A stretch of DNA of 63,993 bases, filler included, from Basidiobolus ranarum (lineage: Eukaryota), in the NCBI GenBank assembly GCA_040143965.1. It is 5 parts of 5 records of this genome, joined end to end, with 100 filler letters (N's around TTAATTAATTAA, not from the genome) between each part and the next. Parts side by side here need not be neighbours in the genome. Positions count along the whole stretch, not along the records: positions 51,468 to 63,993 come from JASJQH010007411.1; 4 more parts are not named here. The stretch is one strand, 5' to 3'. This document shows, piece by piece, positions 1 through 62,264 of the stretch. The stretch's first letter is position 1, and each line of letters begins with the position of its first letter. The position numbers and the translations under genes were made by a program. Under the pieces are notes generated by a model. That model was not told the origin of the DNA and did not search any database. It was given only the letters and a program-made list of their open reading frames with translations.

Positions 1-3000
1 GAAACCATGGGTAAGGAAAACACCCAAGGGAGATCTTTGCAGTGCTGAAGACTGCAGACACATAAACCAGGTGTGATGCCAAGTATCTGGTATGCTCTAC
101 ACATCAAGTAGAGCTCAAGATGTACTAAAGACTGATCACAAAAGATCAAGTACCAAGAAAGGAGTAGAATAATGTATACTAAACAGAGAGCTTGCCAAAC
201 TCTAAAGACTGCTGACAAATCACAAAGGGTGGGGTTTCAAAAAATGATTGTATGGGAAATACTTGGTCTTAAGTGTGCATAATGCTAAGGAGAGTGGACA
301 AATGAGAAACAGCATGGTGCCAAGAGACTTTGGGTATGGATACACTTAATGCCGAGTTCATGCTATGCTCAAGACTAATGACAATCAATAACGGTACACA
401 TGTTATGGTGCCAATACACAATGGGTGTGGGAAGTGCTTAGAACAGTGGCCATGCCATCCAATAAGCTACCAGTAACTCACAATTGTATAGTTGCCTAAA
501 CATTTGATATATAGAGTCTAAATATTATGCACTGCTAAAGATAAAAAAATTGGTATGGAGTTAAGAAACAAGTTCAATGGGAAGAGCTTGAGTCAAGTCC
601 ACACAGCCCAAATGTCTACCAACAAATGACAAAATGTATGGCTCCATGAACAGACTGTGTGGCAAACACTTTAAGGAGATGATATAAAGTTCTAACAACT
701 GCTGGCAAAAGACCAATTGTATTGTGTCAAGACAAAATGTGGAAGAAACCACTTGAAGTAGAGTCTATCAGCAGTATAGATAGCTGACAAATGATGAAAA
801 TTGTATTGCTAGGTAACAATGAATATTAGTAATACTAAATGTAGAATCCAAGTAGTGCAAAAAGCTACTAAGCGGTGAGATTACAGATGGTGCTAAGTAA
901 CAATGACTATGGAAAGATCTTAAAGCAAAGTCAATGCAGTGCAAAACATGAGTGACCAGCCTTGAATAGTATGGTGCTAGGAAATTGGCAGTATAAGAAA
1001 ACTTATGCACAGTCCATGCTGTTTTGGTGACTAACCAGAAATAATGAAGGGTTTAGCAAAAACAGAGATCAGGTGGGTAAAAGACTCAAACAAGAGTCCT
1101 TGAAGTGCTAAAGACTGCTCTCCAATGACAAATGGCATGTTGACATGGAAAAATTGATACAGCTCCACTTAAAACACTGTCTAAGCAGCAATTAAGACAG
1201 TTGACTAATAACAAAAGGCATAGGTCAAAGGCACCAACTGATATAGAAAGCACCAAAATGAGAAGTTAAACACTGCTAGTGGCCATGGAGAAACAACAAC
1301 AGGAATGGTGCCAAACAACAATGAACATGCTAAGTGCTTTAAGGGGAGTCTAAGTAATGTTAACAACACTGATTAACTGCAGAAGACATGGTTAAAAGAC
1401 ATTAGTGGTATGGAAAATACCAAAAGGAGAGGTTACACATTGTTAAATAATACCATCAAGTACCTGAGGTATGTTGCCAAGTAATGTGCAAATTGGGCAG
1501 TACTAAAAGGAGAAATTATGCAATGCCAAAGTGAACTACTAAATATCAAAGACAAAGTGTCAAATTGTGAGCATTGTGGGAGGTACAAAAGGAGAGGTGA
1601 TGCAATTGCTCAGAATACCATGAAATAGCAAAAGGTATGGAAACACCGTAAGCCAGGGATAGTGCCAAAGAGTCCTATTAAATGACCCAAGTTAAAATGC
1701 CAAGAAACACTACGGGTGCTATGCAAGGTGCTAATAGAAGAGGCTATGCAGTGCTAAGACTACTGACAAACTACAAAAGATATGAAATAAAGAATATTGT
1801 GATATAGGTAAGGCCTAAAAGTGGAGGCTACACAATACTAAAGAATGCAGACCAACAACTCCAGGCATGATGCCTGCAAACAAGTGGTATGTTAAATACT
1901 ACAGACAGAGGCTACAGAGTGCTTACTGGCACTGTTAAACAACCAAAGATATGGTGCTGAGACCCAGGTGGTATGGTAAGCACAAAAAGGAGAGGCTGTG
2001 TAGTGCCAACAATAATTTAGAAATGACTGAAGTTTGTGTACTTAAACATGTGTGTAAATGAGTCCCTATGCAGTGCTAAAGAATATCATCAAATGATTGA
2101 AGGATTATAACCAAATATGGGGCTGTTGGACAAGGACTCAAAGCAGGGATAATGCAGTGGTAAGTACTGCTTGCAAACAATAAAATATATGGTGTAAGAA
2201 GTACATGGGCTTGAAGCCACAGAAAGCATATTCTATTTCAGTGGTAATACTGGCTGGCATTGAACAGAAGATAGGATACTAGGTACCAGATGATAAGGGA
2301 AGCACCAAAGAGAGAGCTTACATAGCAAAAAGACTGCTGCAAAAAACAGAAGGTATGGTGTTAGGAAAACAAGTATACAGGACATACACACAGGAGCATC
2401 TAAAACTTCCTAAAGATCACTGATAAGTGTTAAAAGGTACAATGAAAACAAAGAAAAATTTGGGAAATATTTGCTTGAGAATCTTTCAAATATGAAAAGT
2501 ACTACTGTGAAGCAAAATTGGTATGATGCCAAGTAAATGTAGGTATGTGACCTGCTAAAAATAGTGTTTATGCAGGGTCAAATACCACCATGATGATGGT
2601 TATTCATCTTAATATAAATTTGGTACATCAGCCATGATGGAAGTAAATAGAGATATATTATACATAGTTGTGTAAGCCACATAAAGAAAGCTTCAAAAGT
2701 ACTTAAGAACAGAGTTAAGTAACACCTGAAAACTACCAGTCAAAGCCAAGGTAGGTGATGCTAAGAAGCCTCTAGTGTAGCAATCACTTAATGTAGAGTC
2801 ATTGAAGTGTAAAAGACAACTAGTGAAAAGTGAGGGGAATAATGCCAAGGAGCAATCAATCTGGGAGATAATTAAGCAAAGTCAACAAATGAGAAAGACT
2901 AATCAACAACTACTAGTGCTAAAAATTGCTCAGATAGGGAACAATGTACCATAAACACTTGAGCAACCCAAGGACCAAGCAAAATAGTACACATATTTGA

Positions 3001-4290
3001 TGTTGAAATTCAACTAGTATAGCAAACACTTTAACAAGAATATGCAGGATGCTCAAGATTGCTATTAAATGATGAAAACTCAGTACTATGAAATAAGGGT
3101 ATGGGGAAAACTCATAAAAGCATAGGCAAATCGCTAAAGAAGAAGCACAATTAATCAAGGTCATATTGTTTAGAAATGACACAGATGGTGAGAGCCTAAG
3201 GAACAGAACAATGAGCACAAAAAGCATCAATAAGCACTTATTAGTATAGTAACAATAACCAATGATTGTTGAAAACTGTTTAAGCTGTATCTCTAATGAG
3301 CAGATAAGGTAACAAAAAATAACAGCCAGTTGTAATGGTCTGAGCATTTCTATAAAGTGCTATGGGGTGCCAACATATGATAACCTAATGTCTAATAACA
3401 ACCAATGAGGAGATGATGATATAAGCAATGGGCATTGGTATCACTCAAGTAACAATCAGCAGAGTCCCAAGAACTGGGAACATGCAACATAAGGTTTGAA
3501 CCAAGAGAGAACTATAATTAACACCATTAAGAAAAGTTCTCACTGTGCAAGGTATGATAGTCAAAAAAGGTTATTTTATTGATAGTGAGAGTTGTGAAGC
3601 AAGTAGTACATACTTATGAAAGAACAGCAGACTTAGGAAACATTGCAAAAGAGTCTATTAAGTGCTCAAAAATATTGCAAAGGGATAGATAAGGACTCAG
3701 AAAAGAACATATTGGAAATAAGAATTGCTAGGTTTTCATGTTCCTAAGCCTTTGGAAAAATTAGACAGGGTGTGGTACCTGCAAATAGTATGTGCCAGGA
3801 AACTTGCACTTTTTAATATACCATTAAGCAGAGTGTGGGCAGTGCAAGAAGCTACTAACAAATGATGAGGAGTATTATTTCAAAAGGCAGGTGGTGTGGG
3901 AAATGATGCCAATTTAATGATGCCAAGAAAATATCGTAAGGCAAAGCAACTGGTATGCATAACACCAAAACTAAGTCCATGCTGTTTTAAACACTATTGG
4001 TAAATCCAAAAAGGTTTGATGATAGAGAGCATGCAAAATGCCACTCTGAAGGTAGGGTCTAAGCAGTAGTAATGCTAATTGCAAATGCCTATAGTTATGG
4101 GCCTAAGAACATACTATATGCAGCACATCAAATTGATAGCTTGTGCAGTGCTACATAGTACTGACTGATTACAAAAGGTATGGTGCAAAGAAAATGCAAC
4201 ATGGGGCATGTTAAAGGGAATATATTACAATGAAATATGATATTGCATAGTGAGTATTGATATAGATTGTCAGGAATTGCAGCACAGCTA
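1..4290. repeat. Highly degenerate ~80-85 bp tandem array, purine-rich on the + strand, CpG-depleted
   Basis: A recurring core like GGTATGGGAAA...GAGGCTATGCAGTGCTAAAGACTGCTGACAAA...GGTATGGTGCCAAG, with AAGACT-like anchors at ~48, 128, 205, 287, 371, 1111, 1194, 1756, 1841 and 2330. No long ORF; right boundary approximate. Confidence 0.7.
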
Positions 4291-6727
4291 TATACAACTT
4301 GACATGCCTTACCAAATGGCCATACTTTATTCATATCTGCCACCAGCCATACTTTCAGCTGTATCCCCACAATCTGAATGGGGGCATGTTTTCCAAACAT
4401 AACAAACATGCTAATACTGCCTTGACTCAATTTCACTTAAGAATTTTTCTTTATGCAATACCATACTCTGCTACTGTAGGACTAGGTGTAGCAAGTTAGT
4501 CTTTTAGATCAAGCAAACTGTTACTTGTGCCCTGTCTCCTTAGTAATTTGGTGTACACAGTTTGTGAATCAGAGATTTGCTAAAATCTTCAAACAATGTC
4601 CTGACATATTCAAAAACCAATATGGAGCACAAAGAGAATATACTCAACATTCTTGAATAGATACTGCAAGAATGGTTATATGTAAGGAGTAAGTACATCA
4701 GTAATAGAGATAGCAAGTATGGTATATGTCTAATTTTTAACAACTTTGTAACTTAACCGGGAAGTTTGAAGAATAAAAAGCATCTTGCTCAGTTATACAA
4801 TGTTTATTTCAACATTCACAACTGGCATCAAGCAAGGCATAGCCTGATCAAACAATCACTGTGCAAGTAACTTTATTTGAAACCTATTTATCAACATTTT
4901 TCATCCGGGTAAATAATCAATCTCTAGTTAAATTAGTACAGCTATTAATGCAGTTATCAAAGGATCCTGATGATCAGATCAATTCCAATTTTGTGGAAAT
5001 ACCAAGCATGAATCAGCACTAATTGATAACTTCAATTTCATGCTCATCAGATAGGCTGCCAACTAAGAGTGGTGATGAGGAATGTATAGACTACAAATAC
5101 TGTACACTTAGTCATTGCACTTGCAGTGACTCATTCTATAGCGTTAGCATGACATTAGTCTGGAGAATGCTAAATTCATTGATAACAATGAGCAATCATT
5201 TAATAAAGTTATCATAGATATAACAATAACAATTTAGTAGCAGCATACAAAGACTGATAACAACTATCACATATAACTACTTGATAATTACCAGAGTCAA
5301 GTCAAGTTCTTTCCCGAGTTGTATTAACTGGAAGATGAGTATTTTGATGACAAAACCTGTTCAATAGCCTCTGTTAGGGCAATATAGTAATTAAAGTGAA
5401 ATAACACTATGTATAGTATTTTTAGCTTATATGAGGAAGTGTCATCTCATACAAGCAACACCTGATGATAAATTCTACTCAAGAGCTGTTATAAAGACAA
5501 AAGTATAGAAGAGACAATACCTTACCTCTGGATATTGTGTACTTGAATAACTCATATCTATTATGGTAAAGCCAAACACATCGAATTAAAATTAAGTCCT
5601 GCAATCTAGCCACTACAAATGCTGGTTTCCTGCATTGCAAAGAAATATTTCCAAAAGTAGCATATCACCCCTGTCTCCAATCACTTCTAACTCTATCACT
5701 TGTAAGCTAGCATTGAAAACGATGTTACTTGAACCTTGCTTCTAATTCCTCTTGTACTTCTCATTTGTTGTGCAATTTCCCATTCCTGTTGATATATGTC
5801 AGGCCACTGTAGAGACTATGTTCATATCATCAACTTGTACTCCCTGTGCAGCTTTCAGCTCAATAGAAATTACATAGTTATTACTTGTTAGTATTACTTT
5901 ACCTTTCTTTTTTCTTCATTGTACCTTGATAAAATGGGATCAGTCTGTGAACTATAAATTATAGGCCATGACAATTAAAACTTCACATCATATGATAAAA
6001 ACTTGATGCTTCTTTATTTTGTATCTCTCATTTCTTATCACTGCAGTTTTTGTTGGCAGGTCTTGACATGATACCTATTGTTAAATTTTAGCACTTAAAG
6101 AGTTGTATAAACTTAACATGTAGCAAATCCCATATCTCCTGTGTCTTGAGACTCTACTCCTTGCCATTTTTTTGATATTTTGTGTATCACATGCTTATAA
6201 CATATACAGATTTCCATTGCTTGAACTTATCAAAACCATACCTCTTCTCAATCATAACTAGCCCTAAGTCTTAGACTTCACAAACCCTGCATCTTGATTT
6301 TTCCATATCTGTTATATATTTGCATCCAATGTATTACAAATTCTCAGTACTTTACAAGCAATGGGTTAGCCTTCCCATTTTTCTCACTTCTTGGTAACTG
6401 TATTTATGGCTTAGGCTTATTCTGGTACTAACCTGCTATTACATGATACCCTTCTATATCTTGGCACTCTTGGCATTTTATGGTTATAGATTCCAGCCAT
6501 TCCAAATAAGTGGATTCTATGCTTCATAGCTTGCATAAAACTGAAAGGACTAAATGCTATACTAAGAAAGCTTCTAGCTTCTTTAGTTTCCCCACATGGC
6601 TGAATTATATGCTTCTTAACCTGTGGTAGCACCCATACTGAGCTATTGCTTATTTTCATATCTATCTGGTGAAGATAGTATGCCACTTCTAAACTTGAAT
6701 ACTTGACAGCTCTTGTGATATCTGTAT

Positions 6728-6793
6728 GATTCTTTGGTAGTAAGATTCTAACACATTATAGATTCTTTGGTAGTAAGATTCTAACACATTATA
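6728..6793. repeat. Perfect 33-bp tandem duplication
   Basis: GATTCTTTGGTAGTAAGATTCTAACACATTATA at 6728-6760 and again at 6761-6793. Confidence 0.95.
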
Positions 6794-9399
6794 ATGGTAT
6801 GGCACTGCAATCAGCTGATACACATTGGGGTGGCACAGTCAATCAGTTTGTGTATCTGATAGATGCAAAGGGGTAGGATAATATGTTCTTGCAAGGCTCA
6901 TGTCCATAAGATGTTTCAAGTCACCAACTATGACTAACTACCAGAAAGGCTTATGACTGCTGCCCAATACAGATTGATATGAAGATAACTGATAACTAAA
7001 GGTACTGATAAACCTAACATAACTATCTTAGAAATATTGAATAACCTAATTAATACTTAAACTGCTATGCTTAGTGAGCATGGCAAGTCATTGTCTCTCC
7101 TTCAGTATTAGACTCTGATCCCTCAGCTTTGATGAATTCTGCTAGCTATTTATAGACCTTGCAGTTGACTATCCTCTATTTTGTAAAGAGTGTCATCATA
7201 TATAGATTCAATTTGCATAAATTAAGGAACTTGCAAACTTGTTATCTAATCACTCCTTACTCTGCAATATCCTGGTAATTCAATGATCTGGCTGTGTGTA
7301 TATAAAGTGTTGAGTGTCCTGAGCACATAAAGCTTATCTGTTATAGTTTACATACTAACTTGAGGGCCTGGCTTTTGGCTCCTTATATATTCTTTTTGTT
7401 TATGTTTTGATGTTTTTAATTACACTCATTTGAGACATTGCTTAGACTAGTACTACATATATTCCTATTGTATACCTCCTAGTTATGGCAAGATAGAACA
7501 GGACATTTGACTAACTCTTTTACAAGGATTTCATAGCATCATAACTCTTTTCCCAGTAAACTGTCCTGGTAGTGTGTAGACTAGGCTTTTGGCTCATTAG
7601 ATAGCTTTGATCACTGAGTGCTACACTTTTCACATACCTTATAATTAGTCCATTCACTACATGTGTCTTGCTTTTGATGATTTTATTATAACTCCTGTCA
7701 TGGCCCTAAATTTTTTCTATAGTTAACCTGCCAATTGAACATCCCAACCTGCTTACAACATGCCAGTATTCATTGGGTCAAGTAGCTTCTACAAGTACTC
7801 CTTGTGAATTAACATTTAATATTTCCCCTAGCATATATCTTTTGGCACATGAACTGGAGTCATGTGTTCACATTGGCTCCTCTCCAGGCTTGCATGTTTA
7901 TGGCAGTAAATGCTTAGTATATCACATTTTTGAGCACTGCAAAATGGTTGAAAATAATTGTTCTAATATCACTCATATGCAGATTTAATACAATATGATT
8001 GGTCATCACAATAAATGTACTGTGCTTTGGGTCATTTTGAGCCTCTAATATCTGGCCCATATATATTTTGTTACATAATGCTAAAATGGCCGCCTCATAC
8101 TTCTTGTACACTGCATTACCTAAACCAATGGGATTTGTGATTGATGTTGGCATTTCAATAACTAAATTTTTGGTTATTCAAACATTACATATTTCAAGTT
8201 AATTTATTTGTTGCCAGCCATTGCTAGGCTCAAGTATATATTGTTTTAACATTGAAAACACCAGCAATTTTAATTTTCTAATTTCATAGTCCTCATTAAC
8301 TCTCACCAGTATTTACACCATGTGATTTGACTTGTGTTTTTATTCAAGCCTTTCCTAAATTAGTATGCATTCCATTTTAGTTGCCTAATCTGTATCATTT
8401 TGGTGATACAACATTGAGGACATTCCTTTATGTTTTATTGGGCTACCATGCTGCTTTTAAAGTGGAAGAACAGGATGTGGCAACCACAATTTCTCTTTGC
8501 ATACTTAGCTTCAATGTAAACCTCATATTCAGAGGCTTACTGCAAATTCTATTTGCCAGCTCAGTTGCTGCAAGAATTTCTTGACTGTATTTATTTTTCA
8601 TCTTCTAACACAGAGAAAGCTCTCCTACCAGTTGTTTAAAGTTCTTGTCAAAAAGAAGAATAAAGAAAGAGGCATGGCTATGAACTTAAATACAGCCATG
8701 ACTTTCACAACTCATTTTTTAGTTTCAATAATTGCATGAATGAATATAACATGTTATTTCAAAAATCTAAGTATAAGCTAACCACCTTGTTTATTCACAC
8801 TATAAGCACTATCACAGCAGGGATAAGAATATGTGCAAAACATCCAATTCATAAGCCTTATCTAGGTCAAATACACTTCTTGTACATGAAAAATCTGTTG
8901 AATCCATGTTTATTCACATAAATTGGACTGAGGCAATGGCTGTTCAACTCAGCTCCATTGCAGTACCTTGGAATAGCAGTGCTTTAGTCTACAAACACTT
9001 TATAGTATGCCAAACAAGTCAGAGAGACTCACAACTGCTTCATAGTCAAGTGTGGAGGCTTTGACACTACAATATTAAGGTCTCAGGTATTTCATGAGCA
9101 ATAATGGAGTTTGAACTCTCAGTAAAATACTGAACATCAAATATTCAAAAGTGCCTATAATGCATATGCATTTTGTTGACACAGTGATATAAGCTATCAT
9201 GTTTGATAAAAATTCAGGCTATTTTGCAAAATAAAGCTGAATTAATGGATCCAAAGTTACATTGTTTCAAGCTTATGAATGCAAAGTAAAATAAAAATAC
9301 ATACAACCAGTTTTATGGGAAACAAAACAGATGGCTGTTTTAAGGCCCTCTATAGATTAAGGTTATTTGTAGCAATATCTTAAATTGTATCTCACTTAT

Positions 9400-12150
9400 G
9401 TAAGCTCACAAAAATATTTCAGTACCCTGTAGATAGTGCTGTATGCTGTTTATCATTGATTAAATAAAGGGGACTTTGGTATTGCTTCACATTTGAAACT
9501 CTAAAGTATGAGGTGTGTTCAAACAACTCTACTCAAAGATGTAGAAAGAAGCAGTGAAAGCATCAGTGATGCTGTTAAAGAAGCATAATACTGCACTTAT
9601 ACTGACCAAGTAGTGAGATATTCCAATAGCCCCCTAGCAGCAATGTGAGGAGTAATGTTTTATGGTTGAAAGTCAGGATACTACTGTTGGGCTGAATTTA
9701 TTTCCAACAAAGTCAATATCAAAGTGACACTCTATAAGATTACAACTCAACATAATCTCTCTAAGGTTTATATCAGTCAAATCAAATGTCAAACTTCTTT
9801 GGACTTCTATGTGCACCATTTGTTGTCACATTTCAGCCTTAAAGACTTGATAGTAGGAACTTAAACAGGAGTAAAGGCTTACTTAGTAGCTGCTGTGCAA
9901 GATCTTAAGCTAAGAAGGTATCTGATGTATGGAATCAGATGTCATAAATGTTGCGGATATATTTACAAAAAATGACTGTTTTCACTTTCTGTATTAATTT
10001 AAAATGCAGTTAACCCAGTCCACATGGCTCTGAACTGATATACCAAACTCCTGCTTGGTCTTGACCTGATATAATTACAAGTCTTGTGTAACTTACCTTG
10101 TAAGATATTTCTGGATCAAAAAGTTCACTTAAAAGGAGAAATTGATCTAGAAAGTAGCTATAATGTGGCATGGTGATTAGTGTTCTTAGATGCTATTTGT
10201 TGACATTCCCCCAACTCTTGATCAGACCCTCTAGTACCTAGAATTTAATTTTGAGGTACTGGCTGAATAGCTTTCTGCAGTGCAAGAGAACAAATGACAT
10301 TCTGTCTATGTCAACAAAAGTTGAACCTATCAATCAATCAAGCAAAGTTTCACAAACCCATGATTTATTCATAACTAATCCACACAGTTTATAGTGTAGT
10401 GTCCTGGCACAGTGGTACATGTTGAACCTGAATATATAAGGATTCTGAATACACAGAACTTGCAGTGTTATGATAAAGCCTACTAAGCAACGGTACTGAT
10501 ACCAAAAAAGCAAAGTTCAAGGATATATTATCTAGATAGTGGAGCTATGAAATAGAAATTGCAAAAAGCCTTCAAAAGTGGGGTTTGGGAGAGTCTATGC
10601 TGAGGCATATGAAATTGCATTGCTAGGGAAGTGACTGACAGACTAAGGATACATTCAATAAGGTGCTATTGTTTTGTTTAAGACAATTGAAGTATTATTT
10701 TGTTGGCTGAAAAGAATATGCTTCACATTGATAACTCACATTCTGGCCAAACCTTAATCTAAAGCATCATTGGAATTATCAACAAAGGGCTTAGCTCAAG
10801 AAAATACAAAGTAGTTATTTGAGTACAAAAGCTGAAATCAAGAAAATAGAAACTCATTTCATTGGAGTTTGGTTATTAATATATGATGGTTAAGCACTGA
10901 ATTTGAAGATATTGCAACACTGATACTTATATTGGCAGACCAGATGACTGATTGTTCTTATATTATTTACCAGTCTGACTGTTGCATCAAATTGTAATGA
11001 CAATTTATTAACTTGGCAGAGTGAGCAGTTGTAAACACAAGGCTTACAAAAACAATCTGGTCAGGTAATTTTTGGCCAAGTACACAGATATTTTAAAGTG
11101 GCTTTGTGATGACTGGGTTATGATCACTTTTACCTGATTCATTTTGACTTTATATTGGCAAATAGTGTTGCTACTAACTAATTCTATTTGCTATCTACAA
11201 GGCAAATAACTACTGTATCTGCAGATATACATTGAGGTAAAATACTCTTTACTGAAAGAAATAGATTTAGCATATTAAAGGTAACACTTCCACTGCTGCC
11301 TTTAGCAAGCTCTAACAGGCAACTAATTTATCTCTCAGCTAACCACAGCCTACATTCATCCTTTATGCCAATAACACTTATTATGTTAGTGTGGCAAAGA
11401 CCTACTATACTCAACAATACTTTACTACATCCCTTGATGAGTAGCATTGCTTGAATACAATGCTGTAAAAGAGTGTATTAAAGTATTAATCACAGAAAAG
11501 CCTTTGAATTTTTTTATGTGACTATGCTTGCTGCATGGAAAGCAGTGTGTTAAAAGCAGCAATATATTCCAAACGCTATATATAACTAGTGACCTTGACA
11601 TTACTGGTGAATATTTGACAGCTAAAGCTGATTAGCATAGCAAATTGTACACATGGCTAGGAAAAGGAATGTCAGACCTTCTTCTGATTACCACTTTTGC
11701 AGGGAATTTTCCAAAAAACTTACAGGTCCTTCTCCAAACTATTGCTCTATAATCAACCTTATAGAGGAGGTTGGTACTAGCTTACTAGTTCTTGCCAATG
11801 TTGATGGAAAGTACTCAAACTAAGTTTGAAGAAATAAATTGCCTAAGTTGCAAACTCCAACTAATAATACTTTGCAAGCTGTGATGGAAAGTAAGCAGCT
11901 GCATGTTGTTGGTGCCCCCTATTTATTGCCTCTATCAAAGTACAAACCATATTACTACTGGACTTTTGTATATTTGTATATGCTTTTCCTGCCTAAATCA
12001 ATATTTAAGCTCAAGCCAGGTTGAGCTGTAACATCATCTAAAAAAACACTGGTGATGGTAATGCACAGGTATAATGTTGTATAGACAGACATGGTTGGTC
12101 AAACATTTCACCAATGCTAGTTGCAGTCTGATTCAGCATGATAGCCTACA
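9400..12150 (+). mobile_element. Decayed DUF6589-like (putative transposase) relic
   Basis: Collinear motif remnants: LADQMT (10932-10949, cf. GDQLT), FLCDY..ME (cf. FLRD), VKSSNIFQ (11549-11572, restoring to VKSGDIFR if CpG>CpA changes are reversed, cf. AIKxGDIGR), and LANVDGK..FEEIN (from 11791, cf. LVNxxG..F...D). Many stops and frameshifts; ends approximate; family recognised from memory of motifs. Confidence 0.45.
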
Positions 12151-12779
12151 TGGTGTTAAGGATATAAATTCACAGATGATGTAAGAATACTTCATATTGT
12201 TGAGAACCCAAGAGATCATCAGTGAGGCCATTATTCACTTAAAGGATATACATGACTGCATTACCTAAATACCAGAATGTTTGCAATATTCACTGATAAC
12301 TAATAGCACTTTAACTCCATACTTTTCATTATGAACTCACTTACTCTTGAACTTTAAAACAATCAGTTAGACCTATAATTTGCACATGTTTACTTCTTTA
12401 AGCTTTTACTATGAATAATTTCATATCACTAATCACAAACTTATCTCCTGTCATAGTGCCAGATTTTACTCTATATATTTTATTAGATAAGGTAATCTAT
12501 TTATGCAGCTCATTATTGAAAAGCAAATGTTATCTTAAAACTGGTACTGAGGGTTTACATGTATAAGCTAAGTTTAGTCGCACAAAGTTTAGTGACAGAG
12601 ACTTACTTTATTTCACTCTAGATTGCTTGAGCTGAATATTTATCTCCATATTTGCAGAGACCCAAAGGGCTATCTCACTATAAAATGAATATATAGACAT
12701 ATTGCTAGTTAAAAGACCACTCAGAAATCTTACAATTGAACTTTACAAGGGTATTTTGGCAATAAAAACAAAGAGCTTC

Positions 12780-25754: not shown

Positions 25755-27385
25755 TCCCCAACCAAAATGGAAATTTGTGAGGGTTGTATGTATGAAAAAC
25801 AAGCCAGGCAACCATTCAAGAGCTCTGGTTTAATCAAATCTGTCATAAAATTGGATCTAATTCATTCAGATTTGTTTGGACCTATGCAAAATTTATCTTT
25901 AGGTGGAAAAAGATATTTAATCACATTTATTGATGATTATACAAGATACACTTGGGTCTACTTTACGGGAAGAAAAGAAGTAGCTCTGTCTATCTTTAGA
26001 GATTTTAAAACGCTTATGCAGACTGAAACTAGAACTAAAATCAAGAAAATACATACTGATAATGGTGGAGAATATACTTCAACACTATTTAAGCACTTTT
26101 GCAAAGTTCATGGAATTAAGCAAGAAACTACTGCCCCCTATTCACCTCAACAAAATGGAGTTGCTGAAAGAGCTAACAGGACTAAAAAAGAAATGGCAAG
26201 ATCTATGATAAATGCACAAAATTTATCTCATAACTTTTGGGTGGAATCTGTTGCTTCAGCTATGTATCTGAAGAATAGGAGTTTTACTAGTAGTCTGTCT
26301 AACTCTACACCATATCAAGCTTGGTTTGGAGTTAAACCTGATGTAAAACATTTGAGGATCTTTGGATGCATTGCTTATGTCAAAATTATGACCAAAAATT
26401 GGTCTAAATTTGATCCAAAAAGTTTGAAATGCATATTTCCTGGTTATTTTACTCAAACTAAGGCCTACGGACTCTATGATACCAAGATTTCCAAGTTGAG
26501 CAAGTCCAGGGATGTTTTGTTTAATCAAAATTAAAAATATTCACCCAAAATGACCTCAGACAATGACAAAAATCAAGTTTCTGCTGATCCCATCATTCAA
26601 ATTGATTCAAACTAAGACAATGAGGAAAATAGCATTCCTGTGGACCCTTCAACCAAAATGTTGCCTACTGAAGTGCCCAATACAATGCCAGAAGTTGTAG
26701 TACCTTTATCCCAAACCAGGAGATCAAATTGGATCAGAAATAGCCCTGATTACTATATCAATGAGTCCCAAAATTGGGCCTATGCCTGCACAGCTCAAAT
26801 ACATGAACCCCAGACTGTAAAAGAGGCCCTGAATGGCCCTCACATGAAATTTTGGAGATCTGCAATGGCTGATGAGTACCAGGCTTTGATTGATAATCAA
26901 ACTTGGATTTTAACCAACTTACCTGATGATAGAAAATCAATTGGCTGCCAATGGGTGTTTAAAGTTAAATACAACTCTGATGGCAATATAGAAAGGTACA
27001 AGGCTAGACTAGTAGCCAAAGGCAATTCCTACACACCAGGAATAGATTACACAGAAACTTTTGCTCCTGTAGCAAAGTTAAATTCAATTAGATTGATTTC
27101 AGCAATTTCAGCTGAATATCAGTTTATTACACATCAAATGGGTGTTAAAACAGCTTTTTTGAATGGTGAGCCTGCTAAGAAGATCTATATGGACCAGCCA
27201 GATGGATTTGTGGACCCAGAAAACCCTAAACAAGTTTGCAGACCCCAGAAAACACTCTATGGCTTAAAACAATCTCCTAGAGTGTGGAATAGCAAGATGG
27301 ATGCTTTTTTAGAAACACTCAAATTCCAAAAGAGTAATGCTGACTATAGTATCAACTTCAGGCCAGATAAGACAAACCCCACGTT
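25755..27385 (+). mobile_element. Ty1/copia LTR retrotransposon pol fragment (integrase plus 5' RT), inactivated
   Basis: CEGC..KQ, LIHSDLFGP, FIDDYTR, TDNGGEY, PQQNGVAERANR, then RT motifs WVFKVK, YKARLVAKG, ETFAPVA, HQMGVKTAFLNG, LYGLKQSPRVW, in copia order. In-frame TAA stops at 26532 and ~26613; sequence ends before YVDD. Confidence 0.96.
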
Positions 27386-30300
27386 TCTCCACGGATGTCA
27401 ATTCCAAGAGAGATTTCTGTTGGTTTAGTAACTCAAAAGTGATCGGCCCAAGTTTCTCAAGACGTGCATTGATTTCTTTTACACGCAAGAGTGTTTCTTT
27501 GGGAATAATCTTATAGATGTCTGAATTCAAAACCACCTGCTGAATATTTACAATCCCTTCAGTCAACTCTCTGAGCTCTCCTAATCTCTTAGCTAACTCA
27601 GTATCTCTCGCCTGGTCGTTTTGGTTAGCCGCCTTGGTTTCATGAAGTAATACATTCTGAATTTCTACGATGCGAATAATATCGTTTTTGAATTGGGTCA
27701 GCTTTGATTTAATTAACCGAATATCTCCCGTTTGTTCCTTAAGAATGCTCATTACTTCGTCCCGTTGTAACAATTTGCTTTGCTCGACAGCCATTTGCTT
27801 TATCCACCCGGCCATTTGGGCGAATTGTTGACGTAGCTGAGCAAATCGTCCTTCCATTTTCTGATAGTTACCACCCTCTCCAAGTAGCTTGACGATTGTT
27901 GTCTGTTCCTCACGGACACTTCTGATCACCATTCCAACCTGAGCCATACGATCATTTAGGTTTGAAATTATTTTGGACACTTCCTCTCCCACTCTAGCAG
28001 CTATTTCAGGTCCTAAAAGACTCCTCTGAGATTCAATTAATTTTCTCATAACTTCGCGCAGAGAACCAAGCTCAACAGCAATTGCCCGATCACGCTTAGA
28101 GTCTTCAGAAGATGCTTGTCCAATCTGCTTAATGATCAGTCCTTGCTCGTTAATCATCTTGTCAAATTGATTGCCCAATTCACTTAGTTTCACCCCAAGG
28201 CCAGCAATGCGATGATTCTGATCTCTTAGAAAAGCAGTTATTTCGCGGGTATTCAGAACTTTTGTCTGTTCAGCAAAGGTCTGTTTGATAAAATCGAAAA
28301 GTCCCAGTAAACGTTTGTTTACCTCACTAACTTGCCCCTCTAGTTGATGCCCTGTAGCGTTGCTATCGCGAGATAATTCAACGAGTGTATTTTGCTTGGA
28401 GGTAAGTTGATTTACGATTTCGACTAGCTGAGAATATTTCTCATTCAGCAAAGCCAACCGGCGAAGAATCGGCTCAGGAACTCTACCAGTTGATGAAATG
28501 GATAGCAATTTCTTTTGCTGTTCAATTAGTTGGCTAATTAAACTTTGAAGTCCACTTAAACGTTGAAGAATATTGGTTGTTTCTTTAGAGTCAGTCGTAC
28601 GATCAGCACTGATTCTCTTGAGTAAATCGAATTGAATTCGTACTAGATTCTGAATCTTTTGGTCAAGATTTCTCACTTCCCTGGTCAACAAATCAGTTTT
28701 GATCAAGTTTTGCTCGAGTAGCTTTGAGTTGTTCAGTAGGACAGTCTTTTGTTCTAAAAAGAGCTCTTTTACGTAAGCACCAAGCTGTTCTAATCTTGCG
28801 TCCAAACTTCCGACTCTATCAACAATTAAACTAGTATCTTTGCTGGATTGGACAAATAGCTCTTTCTGTAATCCGAGTACTTGATCTACATCCTTATTTA
28901 AGCCAAGGAGTTTACCATTGAGTTGGGCGATCTCTGCTGGGATTTTCTGCCTCAAAGCTTCATCGAATTTTTGAGATAGAACACTCGTTTGTTGGCTGGT
29001 CAATTGATAAATCGTTTTGCGTAACTCGGCCAGATTTTGGACGATTCTTGCAAATTTTTCATTGTCCATTTGCCCATCTTTGGATATTATAGCAACTAAC
29101 TTCTGTTGCTGTTCTACTAAGTATGCTACTTTGTTATCCAAATTCCCTAATTCAGATTTGATATATTTAAGATCCTGAGCTTGTTCAGGAGTTAGTCCTC
29201 CTCGTTTGATGATGCTTAGTTGGAATTGAGCGATTTTCTCAACCAGTTGGCTTAGGCCCGAGAGGTTCTTTTTCACTTGACCAATGTCTTCAATAATATA
29301 CTTCGTATCTCCATTTTGTTGTTGGATAAGATAGTTCTGTCGATCAGAGATTTGTACTACCACTTTGCTTAATCCCATAAACTGACTGCGTAAAGCATTG
29401 ATATCGTTAAGTAGCTCTTTGGGCACCTTATTCCATCCACCTTGGAGCAAAACGTTTTGTTGAACTAGTACTTTGCGAATACTTTCACTCACTAATGAAA
29501 GCACCTTTCTCAGTTGGTTCAATTCTTCATTTTGTCCACGTTCATTACCTAGTACAGCCTTTTGCTGATTGAGAAGTTGAACAATTTGATTGCTGATCTC
29601 GGCTAACTCCAAGGAGAGGCTCTTAATATTCCCATTTTGCTGCTTAAACAAATTGACTACTTCTTCGCGCGTAATCAAATGCTTTTGGGTTTCTGCTACC
29701 ATGGTTACTAGATTGTAGAGCTTGTTAAACTGTTCACCAAAGACACGAAGCTCTTCGCCATGCTCTTTGAGCATAGAATTGTCCTCTTGAGTATAAGCTA
29801 ACAGCTTATTTTGTTGTTCAAGGAGACCGCGAACAAATTTCATCAACTGATTCATGCCTCCATCAAGTTTGGAGAGCTCTTGAAGTACTTCTTTCGATTT
29901 AATAGTGTTACCCTCAGAAATAAAATAAACAAGCTTGCGTTGCTCATTAACCATAACCTCAATTGTTTTTCTTAGTTCTGACAGTTTGTCGTCGGTAATT
30001 CCAAAAATCTTCTCGATATCATTACCATATTTTCCCAGAAGTTGTTTTTGTTGATATGCCAGCTGATTGATATCTTTTCCGAGAGTGTTCAATCTCTGGT
30101 TGACGACTCTAAAGTTCTTGTTTTGCGATTGTGAGAGTTGAGTAATTTGCTTTAGCAGTATATTTTGCTTTTCGGCAACTCCATTGATCACCGAACTAAG
30201 TCGATTTATCTTTGCATTGATTTGTTGTGTGTTTTGAGCAATGAACTTAGTGGACCCCTCGACCTGAGAGAGTGAAGATTTGACTTCATTCAACACAATT

Positions 30301-51467: not shown

Positions 51468-52800
<1,333 letters not shown>

Positions 52801-55809: not shown

Positions 55810-56310
55810 AACAACATATATGTTTACCCATACCCCTAGCCCTAACCCTTAGAGACACTGTAATCTATTATATTCAAGTCAAATGCCCTCTTCTAAATCC
55901 CTTCTATTTTGTGTACTAAATAAACGTTGTACGGAAAAGACACCAAACGATGTTACAATTGATAAGAGCACTTTGGATACCAACGATTATAGGTAGATTG
56001 AGTTTGATTCGGGGTAATCGACCATTCTTTATATATTAATACAATATACTGTTAAAATAAATAGTACTGACCAAAGTGGATCATTGGGATTGAATTTAGC
56101 AGGTGATGAGAGTCTAGTAAGTCTATGGAATCGAACAAATCTGAGTTGTAAAGTGAGGTCTTGTCTAGACCGTAGAAAATGTGGAGAGCAGTCTGTTCTA
56201 GACTTCAGAATACTTTCTCACAGTAGAAACAGTAACCAAGTTTGAAGCTATAAAATCGAGGCGTACTGTTCACTCCAAACACATTAACAAACAATCTCAT
56301 TTTATTCAAT

Positions 56311-56520
56311 ATGTTCACCTCTATCGCTCGTACCAGACTCTCTACCCAAGCCTTTGCTCCCATCATCCGTCGCAATGTCCACGTTGACCACTCCAATGCT
56401 CAATATGCCAAGTCAAAGGGCCTCGTCGCTCCTGTAGCTTTCTTAACCGGCTCCTGTGTATTCATGTATGCTTGTATCATGGCTGCTCTACCCACTCAAC
56501 CTAGAAAGGAACAAGTCTAG
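56311..56520 (+). CDS. 69-aa putative mitochondrial single-TM microprotein
   Basis: Arg/Ser/Thr-rich acid-free presequence (MFTSIARTRLSTQAFAPIIRR), one hydrophobic segment, codon usage like the ribosomal-protein genes, TATAAAA ~60 bp upstream. Confidence 0.75.
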   Translation: MFTSIARTRLSTQAFAPIIRRNVHVDHSNAQYAKSKGLVAPVAFLTGSCVFMYACIMAALPTQPRKEQV

Positions 56521-56872
56521 ATAATTTCTTGTACGAACAAAAGGGTCTCTTAGATCAAATGTAAAAATAATCCCAAGTCATTAAAGAACTTTAACTCGAA
56601 ACTCGTTCACTTTTGTTTCAATCGATAAAAGCTGGAGATACCGACCAACTATTCTAGATTAAACATACTCCATATTTTTGGTCTAGAGCTAGATCAGCCT
56701 TTTCTCATGTGTTACGTTGATTCTTAGTTTCAATATCGTTGATTATTTGACACACTTTATTATGAAGGTAGTACGAATGAGAGGGATATAGTAATTCTAA
56801 TGGAAGGCTGGTTGAGCAAGAATAAAGTGACAATTATTTTACAAAACTTGTGTCGAACAAACATTTAATGAA

Positions 56873-59110
56873 CTAAGTAGAGCCATAGCTGGGAATAAGT
56901 GCTTTAAATACCGCTACAAGTTCCTTATTAATAGAAAGATTGTTTTCCGATAATTTCGTCTTAAATTCAGTTCTGCACATAGGACATATCTGACCGAAGC
57001 AGCTAATTGATTGTTTGAGGCAACCCTCACACACACTGTGCGAACACTGAGGAGTAGTAACAGGGTTCTCCACCATATCTTGGCAAACTGGACAAAGAAA
57101 TTCTTTTTCCGCTATGATTTCTAGAAATTCTTTCATGTTTCGGGCGCGTGACTCAAGAACCGCTTTCCAAGCACGTTTGCTTTGTACATCTTGAGCGATT
57201 AGATCTAAAATTTCTTGTCGAGGGCTAAATCTACATACTTCCACTATCAAACCTTTCTCCCCAAAATCTTCATGACTCTCATGTTTGGGTTTTTTGTGGG
57301 TTTCTGCTGTGAAGGCCTCATTATCACTCGTATCACTAATCACAACGACTTTTCTTTTGTCTTTTGCTGAGCTTTTTTTCGCCTTTGCGCTCTCCACAGC
57401 TTTGTTTGCAAGTTCGGGAGGGCAATACATTGTAAGACCTAGTTCACGAATACGTCTGGCTCCCTCTTCGGTCCAAGGAGCGGGCTCGGGATCATCTCTA
57501 CGGAAAAGGAATCTCTATGAGATGTGTTAGATAATTTTAAGTGTTTGTAGGTATTTTTGGTCTCATATTGCTTACCCAAACGATAAACCCAGAAAACCCT
57601 GCTTGAGGCCAGTACTACTTAACGAGTAATCAGTGATTAGTATTGCTGAATCTATGTAGAAAATCCAAGACCTTTACCCACCTTAACTAGCTTATAAAGA
57701 CCATCATAACGGACACCATCTGTAGGTGCATACTTGGGATTGTGTTTTGCAGCTTTATAACTTCTGACCACTCGAACAGGTGCGCTTTTTTTCCAATCTT
57801 TAGCCTCCGCTCCATCTACATCATTGAAAGGAGCATCACACGTTCTGGCCAAAGCCATATTATATCTAGTCAAAACTTGATCCTCTGATTGTTCAGCAAC
57901 ACGTTTGTTACCAGTCTTAAGATCACGACCACCGGAGCCAGTATAGAAGAATTCATCCCCATTATCAACATCCTCAGGATAACCCCCAGCCAGAACAATC
58001 GACAATGCTCCAGTCTTGCTAGAACCAGCGATACCACCTACAGGAGGTCTGCGTCAAAAAAAAGATTAGTTACGAATTGGTGTATATACTTGATTTAATA
58101 CACCGCACCGATGAACACCTGCTTCGCTAAGATGAATTCGGTATTTCCATGAAGATCCGACTGGAATACCAGGAATGGCACCCACGTGATTTGGTTTAAC
58201 GATAGAACATTTTTTCTCAACACCGGCACAAGCCATACCTCCACCCCATTTCTTCTTTTGGGTAGCAGATGGCATCTTAGCCTTTCGCGTTTGGGACATA
58301 TTGATATATTGACCAGGCTGAATGATATTAGCTGGATCATTAAAACAATTATCACAATACCTATAAACAGATAAAATTATAAACAAATGTAGAGAGAAAG
58401 CGATTTCAATCTTTTAAGCGAGATTATTACCAATCATCTTCTGGAATCTTATGTAAAGGAGGGTTCAAGCATTTCATATGAAAATACATTTGGCATTCCT
58501 CGCATACTAGAGTGGTTTCTTCGTCTTCTTTGCCACCACAAACGTTACAACCACAGTCCTTACACTTTTTCTTATCATTATTGTTACATTGAGCACATAC
58601 GTAGTCATCAGTTGATATCGGGGTACTTGTAGCCTCACTAGGTGTATTAGGGACTATCTGCAGCTTTGCATCGAGATCCTGAGAACTAACAATAGTTGTC
58701 TCCAAATTTGCAGAAGTAGGAGTGGAAACGGAAGAGTCAGTAGAATTGAAGGATTGAGGAATGGTAGGAGAGGGAGATTCCTCCTCTTCCAATGGAATAT
58801 CGGCTTTCAAAAAAACGAGAATGGTGTCATTGTTTCGAACGTTGTAATCGAAGACTTTATGTTTGTTTTCCAACTAGATCATTAAGACTGGTAAATAAAG
58901 AAAACCTAAAAAAATACTCAAAATGGTTCTCACTTCAAAGAAAAGCTAAAGTACCTGTTTACCAGAATAAATCAAACGCAATCTGTTAACTGGATATTGA
59001 GTTTTTCCTAAAGCTATAGAAATCCGTTGACGAACAACAGAAATGGTGTCTAACTTCTCTGCTGTGATAATAACATGATTTCCATCACTTGTACGAATAT
59101 TTATAAGCAT
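56873..59110 (-). CDS. UHRF1: UHRF1-like protein: UBL - PHD - SRA/YDG - RING, ~6 exons, no tandem Tudor
   Basis: UBL ([27 protein letters not shown]); PHD ([31 protein letters not shown]); SRA ([64 protein letters not shown]); RING ([17 protein letters not shown]). Confidence 0.93.
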
Positions 59111-59309
59111 AGTTAGTATACAAGAATTGAGAGCAGTGAAAAGTATCACTTCGAAGTCAAAAGTAGGTGACAAGTGTTATGAAAATTTTACACTCGTTGG
59201 ATTATTTACATTTGTTTATTATTATTATCAAAACAATATATATAGTAGTCCGAATTGAATCACTAAATAGTAATTTGCATCTGTAAAACAATCATGTAAT
59301 CTAGTGAGT

Positions 59310-59328
59310 GGCGCGAAATGCAACGCGT
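59310..59328 (-). promoter_or_regulatory. E2F/SCB-type site (TTTCGCGCC) next to an MCB box (ACGCGT)
   Basis: GGCGCGAAA at 59310-59318 and ACGCGT at 59323-59328, ~200 bp upstream of the UHRF1-like ATG in AT-rich DNA. Confidence 0.6.
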
Positions 59329-59515
59329 ATGGACAATAAGCGTGAATGTATGCTCACTATTTCAGGAGTTAACTAAGCACACAATGAAAGTGGGTTTAAT
59401 GTCAAAAATTGGAGTTCCGTTAGAAAAGTATATCACATGGTTATTGTGTATAGATAGGTTAAAGATAAATCTATAGTCAGAAAGTAAGCGTATACTAGGT
59501 AGTAGTGACTAGGAA

Positions 59516-60573
59516 CTATGACTGAATTTCATAAATAGGAGGGAGTTCATCAGCGGGGCCAAGTCCATTATATGCTGGTGGCGGGAGTAAAACCTCGTTG
59601 AATTCAAACGGCTGTACGACGATGGAAAATCGATGAATTACTGTGTCCAGAATCATTCCTCCCCTAGATATACAGAATTTAACCACAAGTTTGTGACTGA
59701 CTTCGATGTGATTTGGCCCGCAGTCACTTTTAACGCAGTCAGGAACCTGAACAAGAATACTCACTTCCCAGTTATTTACATTTTCAGGTCGTGAATAGTC
59801 TTGGACGAGATTGGATAGCTTTTTACTTTGTACTGAAGGTCGAATGAAACTTGCACTCCGGTAAATAGTGTATTCACGCATACTTGACTGGATGCGATCT
59901 ACCTCCAGGTGGGGATCTGTCATATAAAAATGAAACGTTACAGGAAATACCTCTCCCGGGGCAAATGTATTGGTGGGAATAGCTGCCTCATAATACATTC
60001 GTGATGCCCAAGTACCAGTGATGATAGTAGTAGCAGTTTCGGGAAAATCCCAGGAAATGGGAAGAGGAGCCCTATAAATTGTAAGAGGACACGAGGCTTT
60101 TAAAGTACGGTGGAAACCGGGTCTTTCGAGAATAGCGTAGAGTTTATAAAAGATTTTTCCATGTGACACCTTAACGCTTTCTGGTATCTTTCCACTCAGT
60201 GGAAATTCAAAATCGTACCGATGTTGACTACTAGATAAAGTGTGGAGTGTGTTAGATGCCTCAAGGATAGGCCAGTTTTCATCTACAAGTATCTGCTCCT
60301 TCCTAGGCATATCTGCAATCAAGCATTATGTAATTCAATTACTAATTGTAATTCTCAAAAAAACTATATAACGATGTTTTTACCACTAGTCATTTTAAGC
60401 TTCAGCGTTCCTTTTAGTCTCAATGAAATGCTTTTCACCCTTGTATTTTTAAGCATATTAACACACACAGCTCCACGCAGTGCACACCCTACTGATTGTT
60501 CTGGTGAACCATGCATTGTAAGCGTATCCTCATATAGAAGAATCTCGAGCGGACTCTGCGTACTTGCTTCCAT
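59516..60573 (-). CDS. Alpha-arrestin (ART/ARRDC-like), 2 exons
   Basis: LRGAV....VKSISLRLKG, YDFEFPLSGKIPES...GKIFYKLYA, IEVSHKLVV, C-terminal PPPAY and LPPIY. Intron 60313-60383. Confidence 0.9.
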
Positions 60574-61704
60574 ATGGTTTTATAGAATGTGAGCTGAAAT
60601 AAGAATGTAGTACTTAGTAAAAGCAATCAGCAACAATCTAGGCCATTTGATGATTATTTATACATTCCATCGCCGGTTAGAAAAACCTATCTCACGAGAT
60701 CCCGAACCACTCTACCCAGAATTAGATACATACTAGTGTATTATGCATTATGCATTACTCATCGCAACTCAGATGACTCTCATGAGATTTTTATGTTTGA
60801 ATCTTATTATTATTATTACCAGGATAAGATCTATTGTCCACGTCTTAGCTTGCCAATCGTGCCCTAGTAAACTACTGGCTATCTCGCACTAGTTTACTTG
60901 ATATGGTATACTCCTCACACTAACTATTTTCACCTTAATCTCCAGTACAAGTATCGAGCACAGTGACTAGATTGCCAGATAGAGAGCATTTCCTCTGAGA
61001 TGGCCATTCTTGGCTAGTGGAGTTGCTTGCCGGGTTAATTCCGATCATACAAGTGTTTACCATCGCCATCATCTTTGTGATGCTCAATTACGGAAGGAAG
61101 CTGGAGTAGACAATGTCAAATATCAAGAAATATTATAATAGTGATAACCTTTTCGTGCACCAACTGACTAATCAATCAGACAAATTAAAGCATGCATTGA
61201 TTGAAGCCTCAACAAGCCTAGAAACTGCATAAATCAAGTCTTATATACCCCTCGTGACTCATTCAACTGATAGATGGTTGGTAGGAATGTCTTGCATAGG
61301 GTGTAGGACGTCAAGGGGCAGTTGTTGGTAGTATCTAAGCCACAGCATGCTATATAGTAGAGTGGACTTGCAAGCCAAAACGAGTCAAAATAATCAAGAA
61401 CTAAATCGCGTCATTCTGAACCTGTCAATCGAGACAAGTCTACACAGGAACTGGGGTTGTGATGAGCAGTCCAGGTAATTCCATGTTGAAAGTCTAGCCA
61501 ATAGTTTATTTAGATAAGGAAAGCGGATAATTCTAAGAACCTTGTTTTTTTTCCTAACCGGTTATCTCCGATCCAATGAAGTTACTATTGTGGAACATTG
61601 GAGGTGAGAGCTACTGTTTATATATTATGGCACTAGCCGAGAGTATTTAAAAGGACAGGTAGATATCTTGACTACTATCACATTTACATCTTTTCCAAAC
61701 CACG

Positions 61705-61971: not shown

Positions 61972-62264
61972 GTTTCCTGAATATTTTCACATCTCTGTAT
62001 ATAATCTTTAAATATCCTGTAGAAGACTGTAATCAGAACCTTCTTCAATCTAATTACATTAAAACAACGATTTATCCTATTTTTTATCCTATTTTTTCCT
62101 ACGCGGATTGTTTCAGTCGTATCTGTGGCAATTTTAAATTACACAATTCATATTGTACAGTTCCTTCAACCCCGGCATGTGTCTCAAAGTACTGATAAGA
62201 TACATCACATCAATCAAATTTATTGGATAGCTTTGTGTCATCGATTGTGCTGATTTTAGTACTA

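Follow-up and report, generated by a model that had tools for sequence, protein, structure and literature searches.

A predicted Tudor-less UHRF1 orthologue in Basidiobolus ranarum and the distribution of this form among fungi

The fungus Basidiobolus ranarum (assembly GCA_040143965.1) carries an intact gene for a UHRF1 orthologue of the type common in fungi, most probably acquired by vertical descent, with UBL, PHD, SRA and RING domains and a short linker at the place where animal UHRF1 has its tandem Tudor domain (TTD). Animal UHRF1 helps to copy DNA methylation marks after replication. The gene was found in a 63,993-nucleotide (nt) stretch of DNA, called the window below, which is made up of five pieces of about 12.7 kb each (1-12779, 12880-25654, 25755-38516, 38617-51367 and 51468-63993), the UHRF1 gene lying in the fifth. 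Since the pieces are joined by runs of N (12780-12879, 25655-25754, 38517-38616 and 51368-51467), features of different pieces are not genomic neighbours.

The exon model was built from a reading of the minus strand over 56700-59300 together with stop-to-stop frames. It begins with an ATG at 59110 and ends with a TAG at 56875-56873, the same ends that the first-pass annotation had given for the gene. Exons cut from the window by a script splice into 1899 nt, i.e., 632 codons with a single stop at the end, and all five introns (81, 70, 60, 67 and 61 nt) have GT..AG borders. The first base of exon 4 (58048) completes a split codon, whole codons running over 57682..58047, while the small exon 5 is required for the frame and supplies a stretch found in the Basidiobolus meristosporus protein and in animal UHRF1. 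Pfam was run separately on each exon; the values in the following list of features are expectation values (E), and protein lengths are in amino acids (aa).

56873..59110, minus strand: whole gene, ATG to stop; six exons encoding a 632-aa UBL-PHD-SRA-RING protein
59110-58955, minus strand: exon 1; aa 1-52, N-terminal part of the UBL (Pfam ubiquitin, 2.1e-08)
58873-58431, minus strand: exon 2; end of the UBL (to 58802), linker, pre-PHD zinc knuckle and most of the PHD (from 58597; Pfam PHD, 2.3e-09)
58801-58598, minus strand: UBL-PHD linker, aa 77-144, inside exon 2 in a continuous frame
58360-58109, minus strand: exon 3; end of the PHD, PHD-SRA connector and start of the SRA (about 58224; Pfam SAD_SRA positions 1-26, 1.8e-04)
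58048-57682, minus strand: exon 4; SRA core with the pocket-lining and N-K-R finger residues (Pfam SAD_SRA, 4.2e-27)
57614-57576, minus strand: exon 5; 13 aa, one SRA strand
57514-56873, minus strand: exon 6; end of the SRA (about 57413), 92-aa linker, C3HC4 RING (zinc-binding part about 57094-56975) and stop

Iterated searches placed the domain bounds at residues 1-76 (UBL), 145-216 (pre-PHD and PHD), 246-453 (SRA) and 546-631 (RING), so that the order is UBL, a 68-aa linker, PHD, SRA and RING. The RING in exon 6 was matched by Pfam zf-C3HC4_2 (1.2e-07) and zf-C3HC4 (4.9e-07). It is the only RING of the protein and stands at the C-terminus, with the UBL at the N-terminus, which is not the order of plant VIM/ORTHRUS proteins. 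The first-pass annotation had recognised four of the five metazoan UHRF1 domains in their metazoan order, and this description is confirmed by the exon-wise Pfam matches and the open 632-aa model. That the gene might be a decaying, functionless relic is hardly credible, given that all 632 codons are open, five of five introns are GT-AG, the length equals that of the orthologue described below and the SRA is 91% identical to its counterpart there; no point supporting such a reading was found.

The orthologue in question is a 632-aa protein of B. meristosporus CBS 931.73 (P0001, K493DRAFT_339863). It shares 77.7% identity with the window protein over 631 columns, and both proteins begin and end at the same residues. 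The exact window protein was not among the database matches of the similarity searches, and it is possible that it represents a diverged paralogue relative to P0001. When compared with full-length UHRF1, P0001 gave E-values of 1.8e-148 (mouse) and 3e-146 (human). Its residues 1-91 aligned with UHRF1 residues 1-92 and residues 137-630 with 299-779; thus, about 45 residues of P0001 face the roughly 200 residues of UHRF1 that hold the TTD. The SRA of P0001 matched UHRF1 SRA crystal chains at 1e-88 and plant SUVH SRA chains (SUVH5/6) at 1e-21, and these scores, together with the Pfam SAD_SRA match, assign the SRA of the window protein to the UHRF1 type rather than to the SUVH type. When the window protein itself was compared, identity was 45.9% with Xenopus UHRF1 (492 columns), 46.6% with the Rhizophagus orthologue and 32.7% with plant VIM/ORTHRUS (431 columns).

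A phylogeny was then inferred from 52 of 280 sequences, hand-picked by name and architecture, by a quick search with SH-aLRT support only. It used the columns from the PHD to the end of the proteins, which kept those of the UBL-PHD spacer, the trait under study, out of the tree. The window protein was joined to P0001 with a support of 100. The pair fell within a set of Zoopagomycota (94) that had a set of Mucoromycota (96) as its neighbour, and the joint Zoopagomycota/Mucoromycota set had a support of 93. Plant-type PHD-RING-SRA-RING proteins were separated at 100, and the deep backbone was unresolved. Since the position of the window protein follows the species tree, such a topology most likely indicates vertical descent. 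The tree places the protein inside the UHRF1 clade and apart from the plants, and together with the alignments and the SRA residues (see below), it supports the assignment as a UHRF1 orthologue.

The linker of the window protein (aa 77-144) is rich in serine, threonine and proline (31 of 68 residues) and has two aromatic residues. Among the Pfam matches of the linker-bearing exon at E <=0.1, there was no Tudor-type family. A hidden Markov model (HMM) of the TTD built from 77 animal UHRF1 proteins, a training set of animals only, did not match the linker even at E up to 10; hhalign of the linker against the TTD alignment gave a probability of 0.1%; and it was also missed by all three iterated searches that started from TTD-like spacers. 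It is also important to note that the end of the UBL, the linker and the PHD share the single exon 58873-58431 without interruption, so that no missed exon could hold a Tudor. The S/T/P-rich linker that had been described at the place of the tandem Tudor is, therefore, confirmed by composition, HMM, hhalign and iterated searches, and as far as the sequence can tell, the tandem Tudor is absent from the window protein. Between the window protein and P0001, the UBL, PHD, SRA and RING are 83%, 87.5%, 91% and 82% identical, respectively, as against 43% in the UBL-PHD linker and 60% in the second linker. Domains at 82-91% identity beside linkers at 43% and 60% speak for selection acting on the domains, and this is the pattern that a disordered tether between constrained domains would produce. 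In the absence of a tandem Tudor, reading of H3K9me2/3 (histone H3 di- or trimethylated at lysine 9) by that module must be absent as well. The intramolecular controls of animal UHRF1 use the tandem-Tudor groove and would likewise be missing without the module.

The distribution of this form was followed in two ways. In the best 120 rows of a word-indexed search with P0001, 42 proteins lacked the TTD family PF12148, all of them fungal (41 named and one unnamed) and spanning Glomeromycotina, Mortierellomycotina, Kickxellomycotina and Basidiobolus; the other 78 carried PF12148, and every named one among them was an animal protein. A HMMER pass over 1.84 billion representatives yielded 302 proteins at E <=1e-30. 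The spacer between UBL and PHD was measured in all collected proteins having UBL, PHD and SRA. It was 164-388 aa long in 99 proteins with a TTD match and 32-114 aa long in 64 further proteins, and 11 proteins had a spacer of 150-288 aa that gave no TTD match in the first pass. When the spacers of these 11 were searched alone, two reached the TTD profile, namely P0177 of the mayfly Cloeon (3.3e-10) and the unnamed P0206 (3.1e-04).

Names were looked up for 30 of the proteins and obtained for 21. All eight named TTD-positive proteins came from animals, and all seven named short-spacer proteins came from fungi: Gonapodya, Entophlyctis, Nowakowskiella, Gryganskiella, Blastocladiella, Kalaharituber and Phlyctema. 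The spacer of Catenaria measured 102 aa. The named proteins with long spacers and no TTD match in the first pass belonged to Mastigella and Mastigamoeba (Amoebozoa), Amoebidium (Ichthyosporea), the chytrid Quaeritorhiza and the animal Cloeon, whose P0177 is placed among the Tudor-bearing animals by the spacer-only searches. Thus, among named proteins the short-linker form was seen only in fungi. The Tudor-less form occurs in chytrids, Blastocladiomycota, Zoopagomycota, Mucoromycota and two ascomycetes, and UBL-PHD-SRA-RING proteins were present in every early-diverging fungal phylum sampled. The two ascomycetes with the full UBL-PHD-SRA-RING set are Kalaharituber pfeilii (P0141) and Phlyctema vagabunda (P0173), one a member of the Pezizales and the other of the Helotiales, the two orders to which Tuber and Pseudogymnoascus also belong. 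Overall, a UHRF1 without Tudor is the usual fungal form.

It is tempting to suppose, as the first-pass annotation did, that such a protein preserves an ancestral opisthokont UHRF1 without Tudor. The evidence leans the other way, although not decisively, and the case turns on the chytrid Quaeritorhiza. Its protein (P0169, 1133 aa) has a 288-aa spacer. AlphaFold, given a 49-row alignment, modelled residues 161-280 of the protein as two groups of beta-strands, with mean confidence (pLDDT) of 58-86 over ten-residue blocks. Structural alignments of this model to full-length UHRF1 begin at residues 162-164 opposite UHRF1 residues 123-127, where the TTD starts, at a root-mean-square deviation of 22-36 A. 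The matches listed by a fold search with the whole model were taken up by SRA and UBL domains, with neither a Tudor-only chain nor a row covering the spacer alone among them. An iterated search from the spacer of P0206 recovered the TTDs of animals at about 1e-56 to 1e-59 and, in addition, P0169 at 1.4e-07, whereas the search seeded from P0028 did not reach P0169, and the one seeded from P0169 recovered only itself. By hhalign, the P0169 spacer had earlier matched the TTD with a probability of 6%; a part of it, set against an enlarged TTD alignment, gave 29% (E 5.8e-04, 97 columns), with two aromatic hallmark motifs in register. A word-based search with residues 155-295 found only P0169 itself. 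Pfam detected no Tudor family at E <=0.5 in eight long-spacer or basal proteins, nor at E <=0.001 in P0028 and P0036. From the model and these searches, residues of about 160-285 of P0169 are probably a divergent tandem Tudor, the sole fungal case among the proteins examined.

If Quaeritorhiza indeed keeps a Tudor-like module, loss of the Tudor within fungi becomes likelier than an ancestral Tudor-less state, and a secondary loss is the course of events to which we incline with moderate confidence. The converse, in which the UHRF1 of ancestral opisthokonts had no Tudor and animals gained it later, we consider rather doubtful, and yet several observations speak for it. A tandem Tudor detectable by profile was confined, among named proteins, to animals (the eight named ones and Cloeon P0177); Gonapodya, Entophlyctis, Nowakowskiella, two Blastocladiomycota and plant VIM/ORTH proteins lack it; and the signs of a chytrid Tudor are faint, with one of three iterated seeds reaching it, the two low hhalign probabilities and the Pfam result just given. 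Against it stand the Quaeritorhiza spacer, with its paired strand groups and its recovery from the side of the animal Tudors, and the spacers of Amoebozoa and Amoebidium, which at 182-281 aa are not short linkers. With its backbone unresolved, our tree cannot settle the order of these events.

The long spacers outside animals and fungi deserve a comment of their own. Six proteins (P0200, P0192, P0183, P0197, P0036 and P0208, from Mastigella, Mastigamoeba, Amoebidium and three unnamed organisms) have spacers of 166-281 aa that share a Cys/Ser-x-Trp...Trp motif and a Gly-x-Tyr-x-Val-Gly end, with no match to any Pfam family or to the Tudor profile. In the tree, Amoebozoa, Amoebidium and two unnamed relatives group together (87). 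The 182-aa spacer of the Mastigella UHRF1 was modelled by AlphaFold at a pLDDT of only 24-59. The shared amoebozoan and Amoebidium spacer may be an undescribed reader module. Such evidence induces us to suggest, quite tentatively, that the stretch between UBL and PHD is an exchangeable slot, which would hold a Tudor in animals and at least one chytrid, another module in Amoebozoa and Amoebidium, and nothing in most fungi; the latter would have lost the Tudor and would maintain CpG methylation without a UHRF1-H3K9me link. Were this so, most fungi would constitute a natural test of what the Tudor contributes.

What the Basidiobolus protein does can be approached through its conserved residues. 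In the SRA, 13 of 14 checked positions are the same as in human UHRF1 (R433, R443, V446, G448, G465, Y466, D469, Y478, T479, S481, N489, K490 and R491; human numbering from the alignment of P0001 with human UHRF1), and the remaining one, H445, is a proline in the window protein. In the SRA-DNA structures of 2008, several of which are among the chains matched by P0001, these residues line the methylcytosine pocket or make up the thumb and the N-K-R finger. All four pre-PHD cysteines are kept (human positions 302, 305, 313 and 316), as are the zinc ligands of the PHD and the RING, the Cys/His residues of the latter aligning with those of animal UHRF1.

On this basis, a mechanism of the UHRF1 type appears to us reasonably probable. 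The SRA would read hemimethylated CpG while the PHD finger would hold the free N-terminus of histone H3, and the RING, aided by the N-terminal UBL, would ubiquitylate H3 or a similar tail. The ubiquitylated tail would then attract and activate a DNMT1-class methyltransferase, and the daughter strand would become methylated. With no Tudor and no H3K9me reading by that route, it would be the methylated DNA itself that directs the protein to its targets. In the course of evolution, the methylated CpGs of transposons would deaminate to TpG/CpA, which fits what we observed in two stretches of the window, both situated in pieces other than that of the UHRF1 gene:

1..12779, no strand: piece 1; 12.8 kb without coding signal, almost CpG-free
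25755..27430, plus strand: Ty1/copia fragment (Pfam rve, 4.5e-16; SH3_retrovirus, 1.8e-22; RVT_2, partial reverse transcriptase, 4e-49)

Piece 1 contains 18 CpG where 396.7 are expected, i.e., an observed/expected ratio (o/e) of 0.045, the lowest of 200 shuffles having 359. The copia fragment contains five where 55.5 are expected (o/e 0.09; lowest shuffle 40). The ratio was 0.67-0.77 in the rest of piece 3 and in pieces 2, 4 and 5, and 0.75 in the UHRF1 gene; outside piece 1, all 1-kb windows with an o/e <0.35 fell inside 25880-27629. TpG and CpA are raised to 1.15-1.43 in both CpG-poor stretches, and the quotient (CpA+TpG)/(ApC+GpT) is 1.39 and 1.59 in them. Repeat-induced point mutation (RIP) of the Neurospora type was considered as the cause of the CpG loss and rejected, the index being raised rather than lowered with respect to the usual RIP cut-offs. 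A loss of CpG rich in TpG/CpA is what the deamination of methylated CpG would leave behind. The copia fragment keeps long open frames and abuts a CpG-normal 2283-aa frame on the opposite strand; it is unlinked to the UHRF1 gene in position and bears on CpG decay at the level of the genome. The contrast of a copia fragment almost devoid of CpG with nearby genes of normal CpG content suggests present or past CpG methylation directed at transposons, in a lineage usually called poor in 5-methylcytosine (5mC). The unchanged positions of the methylcytosine pocket and the TpG/CpA-type decay of transposon DNA thus argue for the UHRF1 mechanism.

Piece 1 is harder to interpret. It has no open reading frame (ORF) of >=150 aa and no Pfam family at E <=0.01 in six of six frames with stops read as X. 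Blastn detected no similarity between piece 1 and the remainder of the window, tblastn with the copia ORFs gave only chance-level results (E 9.4), and there is no long tandem array, the sole repeat being a 33-nt unit that occurs twice. Piece 1 may be an old decayed repeat. It also shows an excess of GpC (o/e 1.33, vs. 0.93 in the genic pieces) and of CpT (1.24).

Several points weigh against the mechanism proposed above. The first-pass annotation had held that transposons lost CpG on contigs 1 and 3; the loss is real in both, and the stretch on contig 3 is a copia element, but the transposon nature of piece 1, which has neither ORF nor Pfam match, was not borne out. The loss of CpG is a mark of earlier mutation rather than of methylation today, and repeat mutation directed at CpG would leave the same trace. 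In the PHD, D337 is replaced by Q and D334, conservatively, by E, in both the window protein and P0001. These are the two acidic residues that grip H3R2 in human UHRF1, and reading of the H3 tail may consequently differ in detail. No DNA methyltransferase was present among the 12 long ORFs scanned in the window. Finally, early-diverging fungi are described as having generally very low or near-undetectable 5mC and high N6-methyladenine (6mA) (PMC8298701, PMC13297926). We found no literature giving 5mC data for Basidiobolus.

Other published data touch on the presence of a methylation system in Basidiobolus and in fungi with the same protein. According to Funabiki et al. 2023 (PMC10538959), B. 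meristosporus is among the fungi with the CDCA7-like protein CDCA7F; all CDCA7 holders have HELLS and almost all have DNMT1, B. meristosporus not being among the exceptions named there. Rhizophagus, which carries the same UHRF1 form (P0041), is reported to have very high 5mC and a DNMT1, and DNMT1, DNMT5, DIM-2 and RID are listed for arbuscular mycorrhizal fungi (PMC8298701). For Tuber and Pseudogymnoascus, high CG methylation with DNMT1 or DNMT5 is recorded (PMC7862722).

The co-occurrence of methyltransferases leaves room for a different partner. The protein could read hemimethylated CpG and yet serve the SNF2-fused DNMT5, like the cut-down Uhrf1 of Cryptococcus, and the Glomeromycotina, with the same protein form, have both DNMT1 and DNMT5 (PMC8298701). 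We regard this as unlikely. The UBL and the RING, which in animals act on DNMT1 via ubiquitin, are constrained between the Basidiobolus-type proteins (83% and 82%). Moreover, the Cryptococcus protein is not known to have a RING. A further explanation would make the protein mainly independent of methylation, i.e., a chromatin-bound E3 ligase that either takes part in DNA repair, where it would sense interstrand crosslinks for the Fanconi pathway, or ubiquitylates in step with replication. In its favour, a survey of 2024 assigns UHRF1/UHRF2 homologues of early-diverging fungi to a minimal Fanconi pathway and finds them expressed in transcriptomes of Glomeromycotina (PMC11061109), and the little 5mC ascribed to early-diverging fungi (PMC8298701, PMC13297926) points in the same direction. 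However, if there were no methylcytosine to bind, it would be difficult to see why the pocket is so strictly conserved, with 13 pocket, thumb and finger positions unchanged. The copia fragment, with its decay of the TpG/CpA type, also speaks for CpG methylation in this genome now or in the past; we would give this explanation only a small chance. UHRF1-type reading of hemimethylated CpG with recruitment of a DNMT1-class enzyme, thus, remains the interpretation that we prefer.

As for its novelty, the fungal UHRF1 group is already known: the Gigaspora, Podila and other fungal proteins bear the name UHRF1 at NCBI, and UHRF1 is scored across the fungal panel of a survey of 180 eukaryotes published in 2023 (PMC10538959). 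The gene described here adds one species to this group and will not surprise a specialist. On the other hand, fungi are said to lack the UHRF family in the abstract of a review devoted to it in 2022 (PMC9614205), a statement against which stand the UBL-PHD-SRA-RING proteins of the sampled early-diverging phyla and of the two ascomycetes. We found no text stating that the Tudor is uniformly absent from fungal UHRF1, although the supplements or figures of the 2023 survey may show it. If fungal UHRF1 drives DNMT1, the UHRF1-DNMT1 relay can run without UHRF1 reading H3K9me.

The remaining content of the window can be described briefly. The UHRF1 gene is flanked by a DEAD-box helicase frame (53731-55806, plus strand) and an arrestin-domain frame (59519-60325, minus strand), neither with an evident link to DNA methylation. 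The 2283-aa frame that abuts the copia fragment (27312-34160, minus strand) and an 864-aa frame (35924-38515, plus strand) have normal CpG and no Pfam match above threshold, only a weak Hydro_N_hd match at 8.7e-04. A frame with two cyclic-nucleotide-binding domains lies at 41345-42478 (plus strand), and two frames at 45446-46663 and 47147-48802 (both minus strand) hold protein kinase parts and a response-regulator receiver, possibly belonging to one intron-split kinase-receiver gene.

In comparison with known systems, the window protein shares with animal UHRF1 (Np95/ICBP90; mouse and human, PDB 2ZKD, 3CLZ, 9M76 and 12DL) the order of UBL, pre-PHD and PHD, SRA and C-terminal RING. It differs in having a 68-aa spacer with no tandem Tudor, while spacers of 164-388 aa were measured in 99 proteins with a Tudor; with the tandem Tudor missing, it departs from the canonical five-domain architecture of animal UHRF1/UHRF2. 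The UHRF1 proteins of B. meristosporus, Gigaspora margarita, Podila verticillata and Blastocladiella emersonii have the same four-domain, short-linker form and differ in species, whereas that of Quaeritorhiza haematococci, also named UHRF1 by NCBI, is unlike the window protein in its long and probably Tudor-like spacer. Plant VIM/ORTHRUS proteins have the order PHD-RING-SRA-RING without a UBL (Dioscorea, P0034 and P0035) and formed the outgroup clade in our tree; the review of 2022 presents them as E3 ligases which combine SRA, RING and PHD and assist MET1 in CpG maintenance (PMC9614205). Finally, the Uhrf1 of Cryptococcus neoformans is likewise a Tudor-less fungal SRA protein tied to CpG maintenance; it works with DNMT5 and is called 'stripped-down' (PMC13297926), while the window protein retains UBL, PHD and RING.

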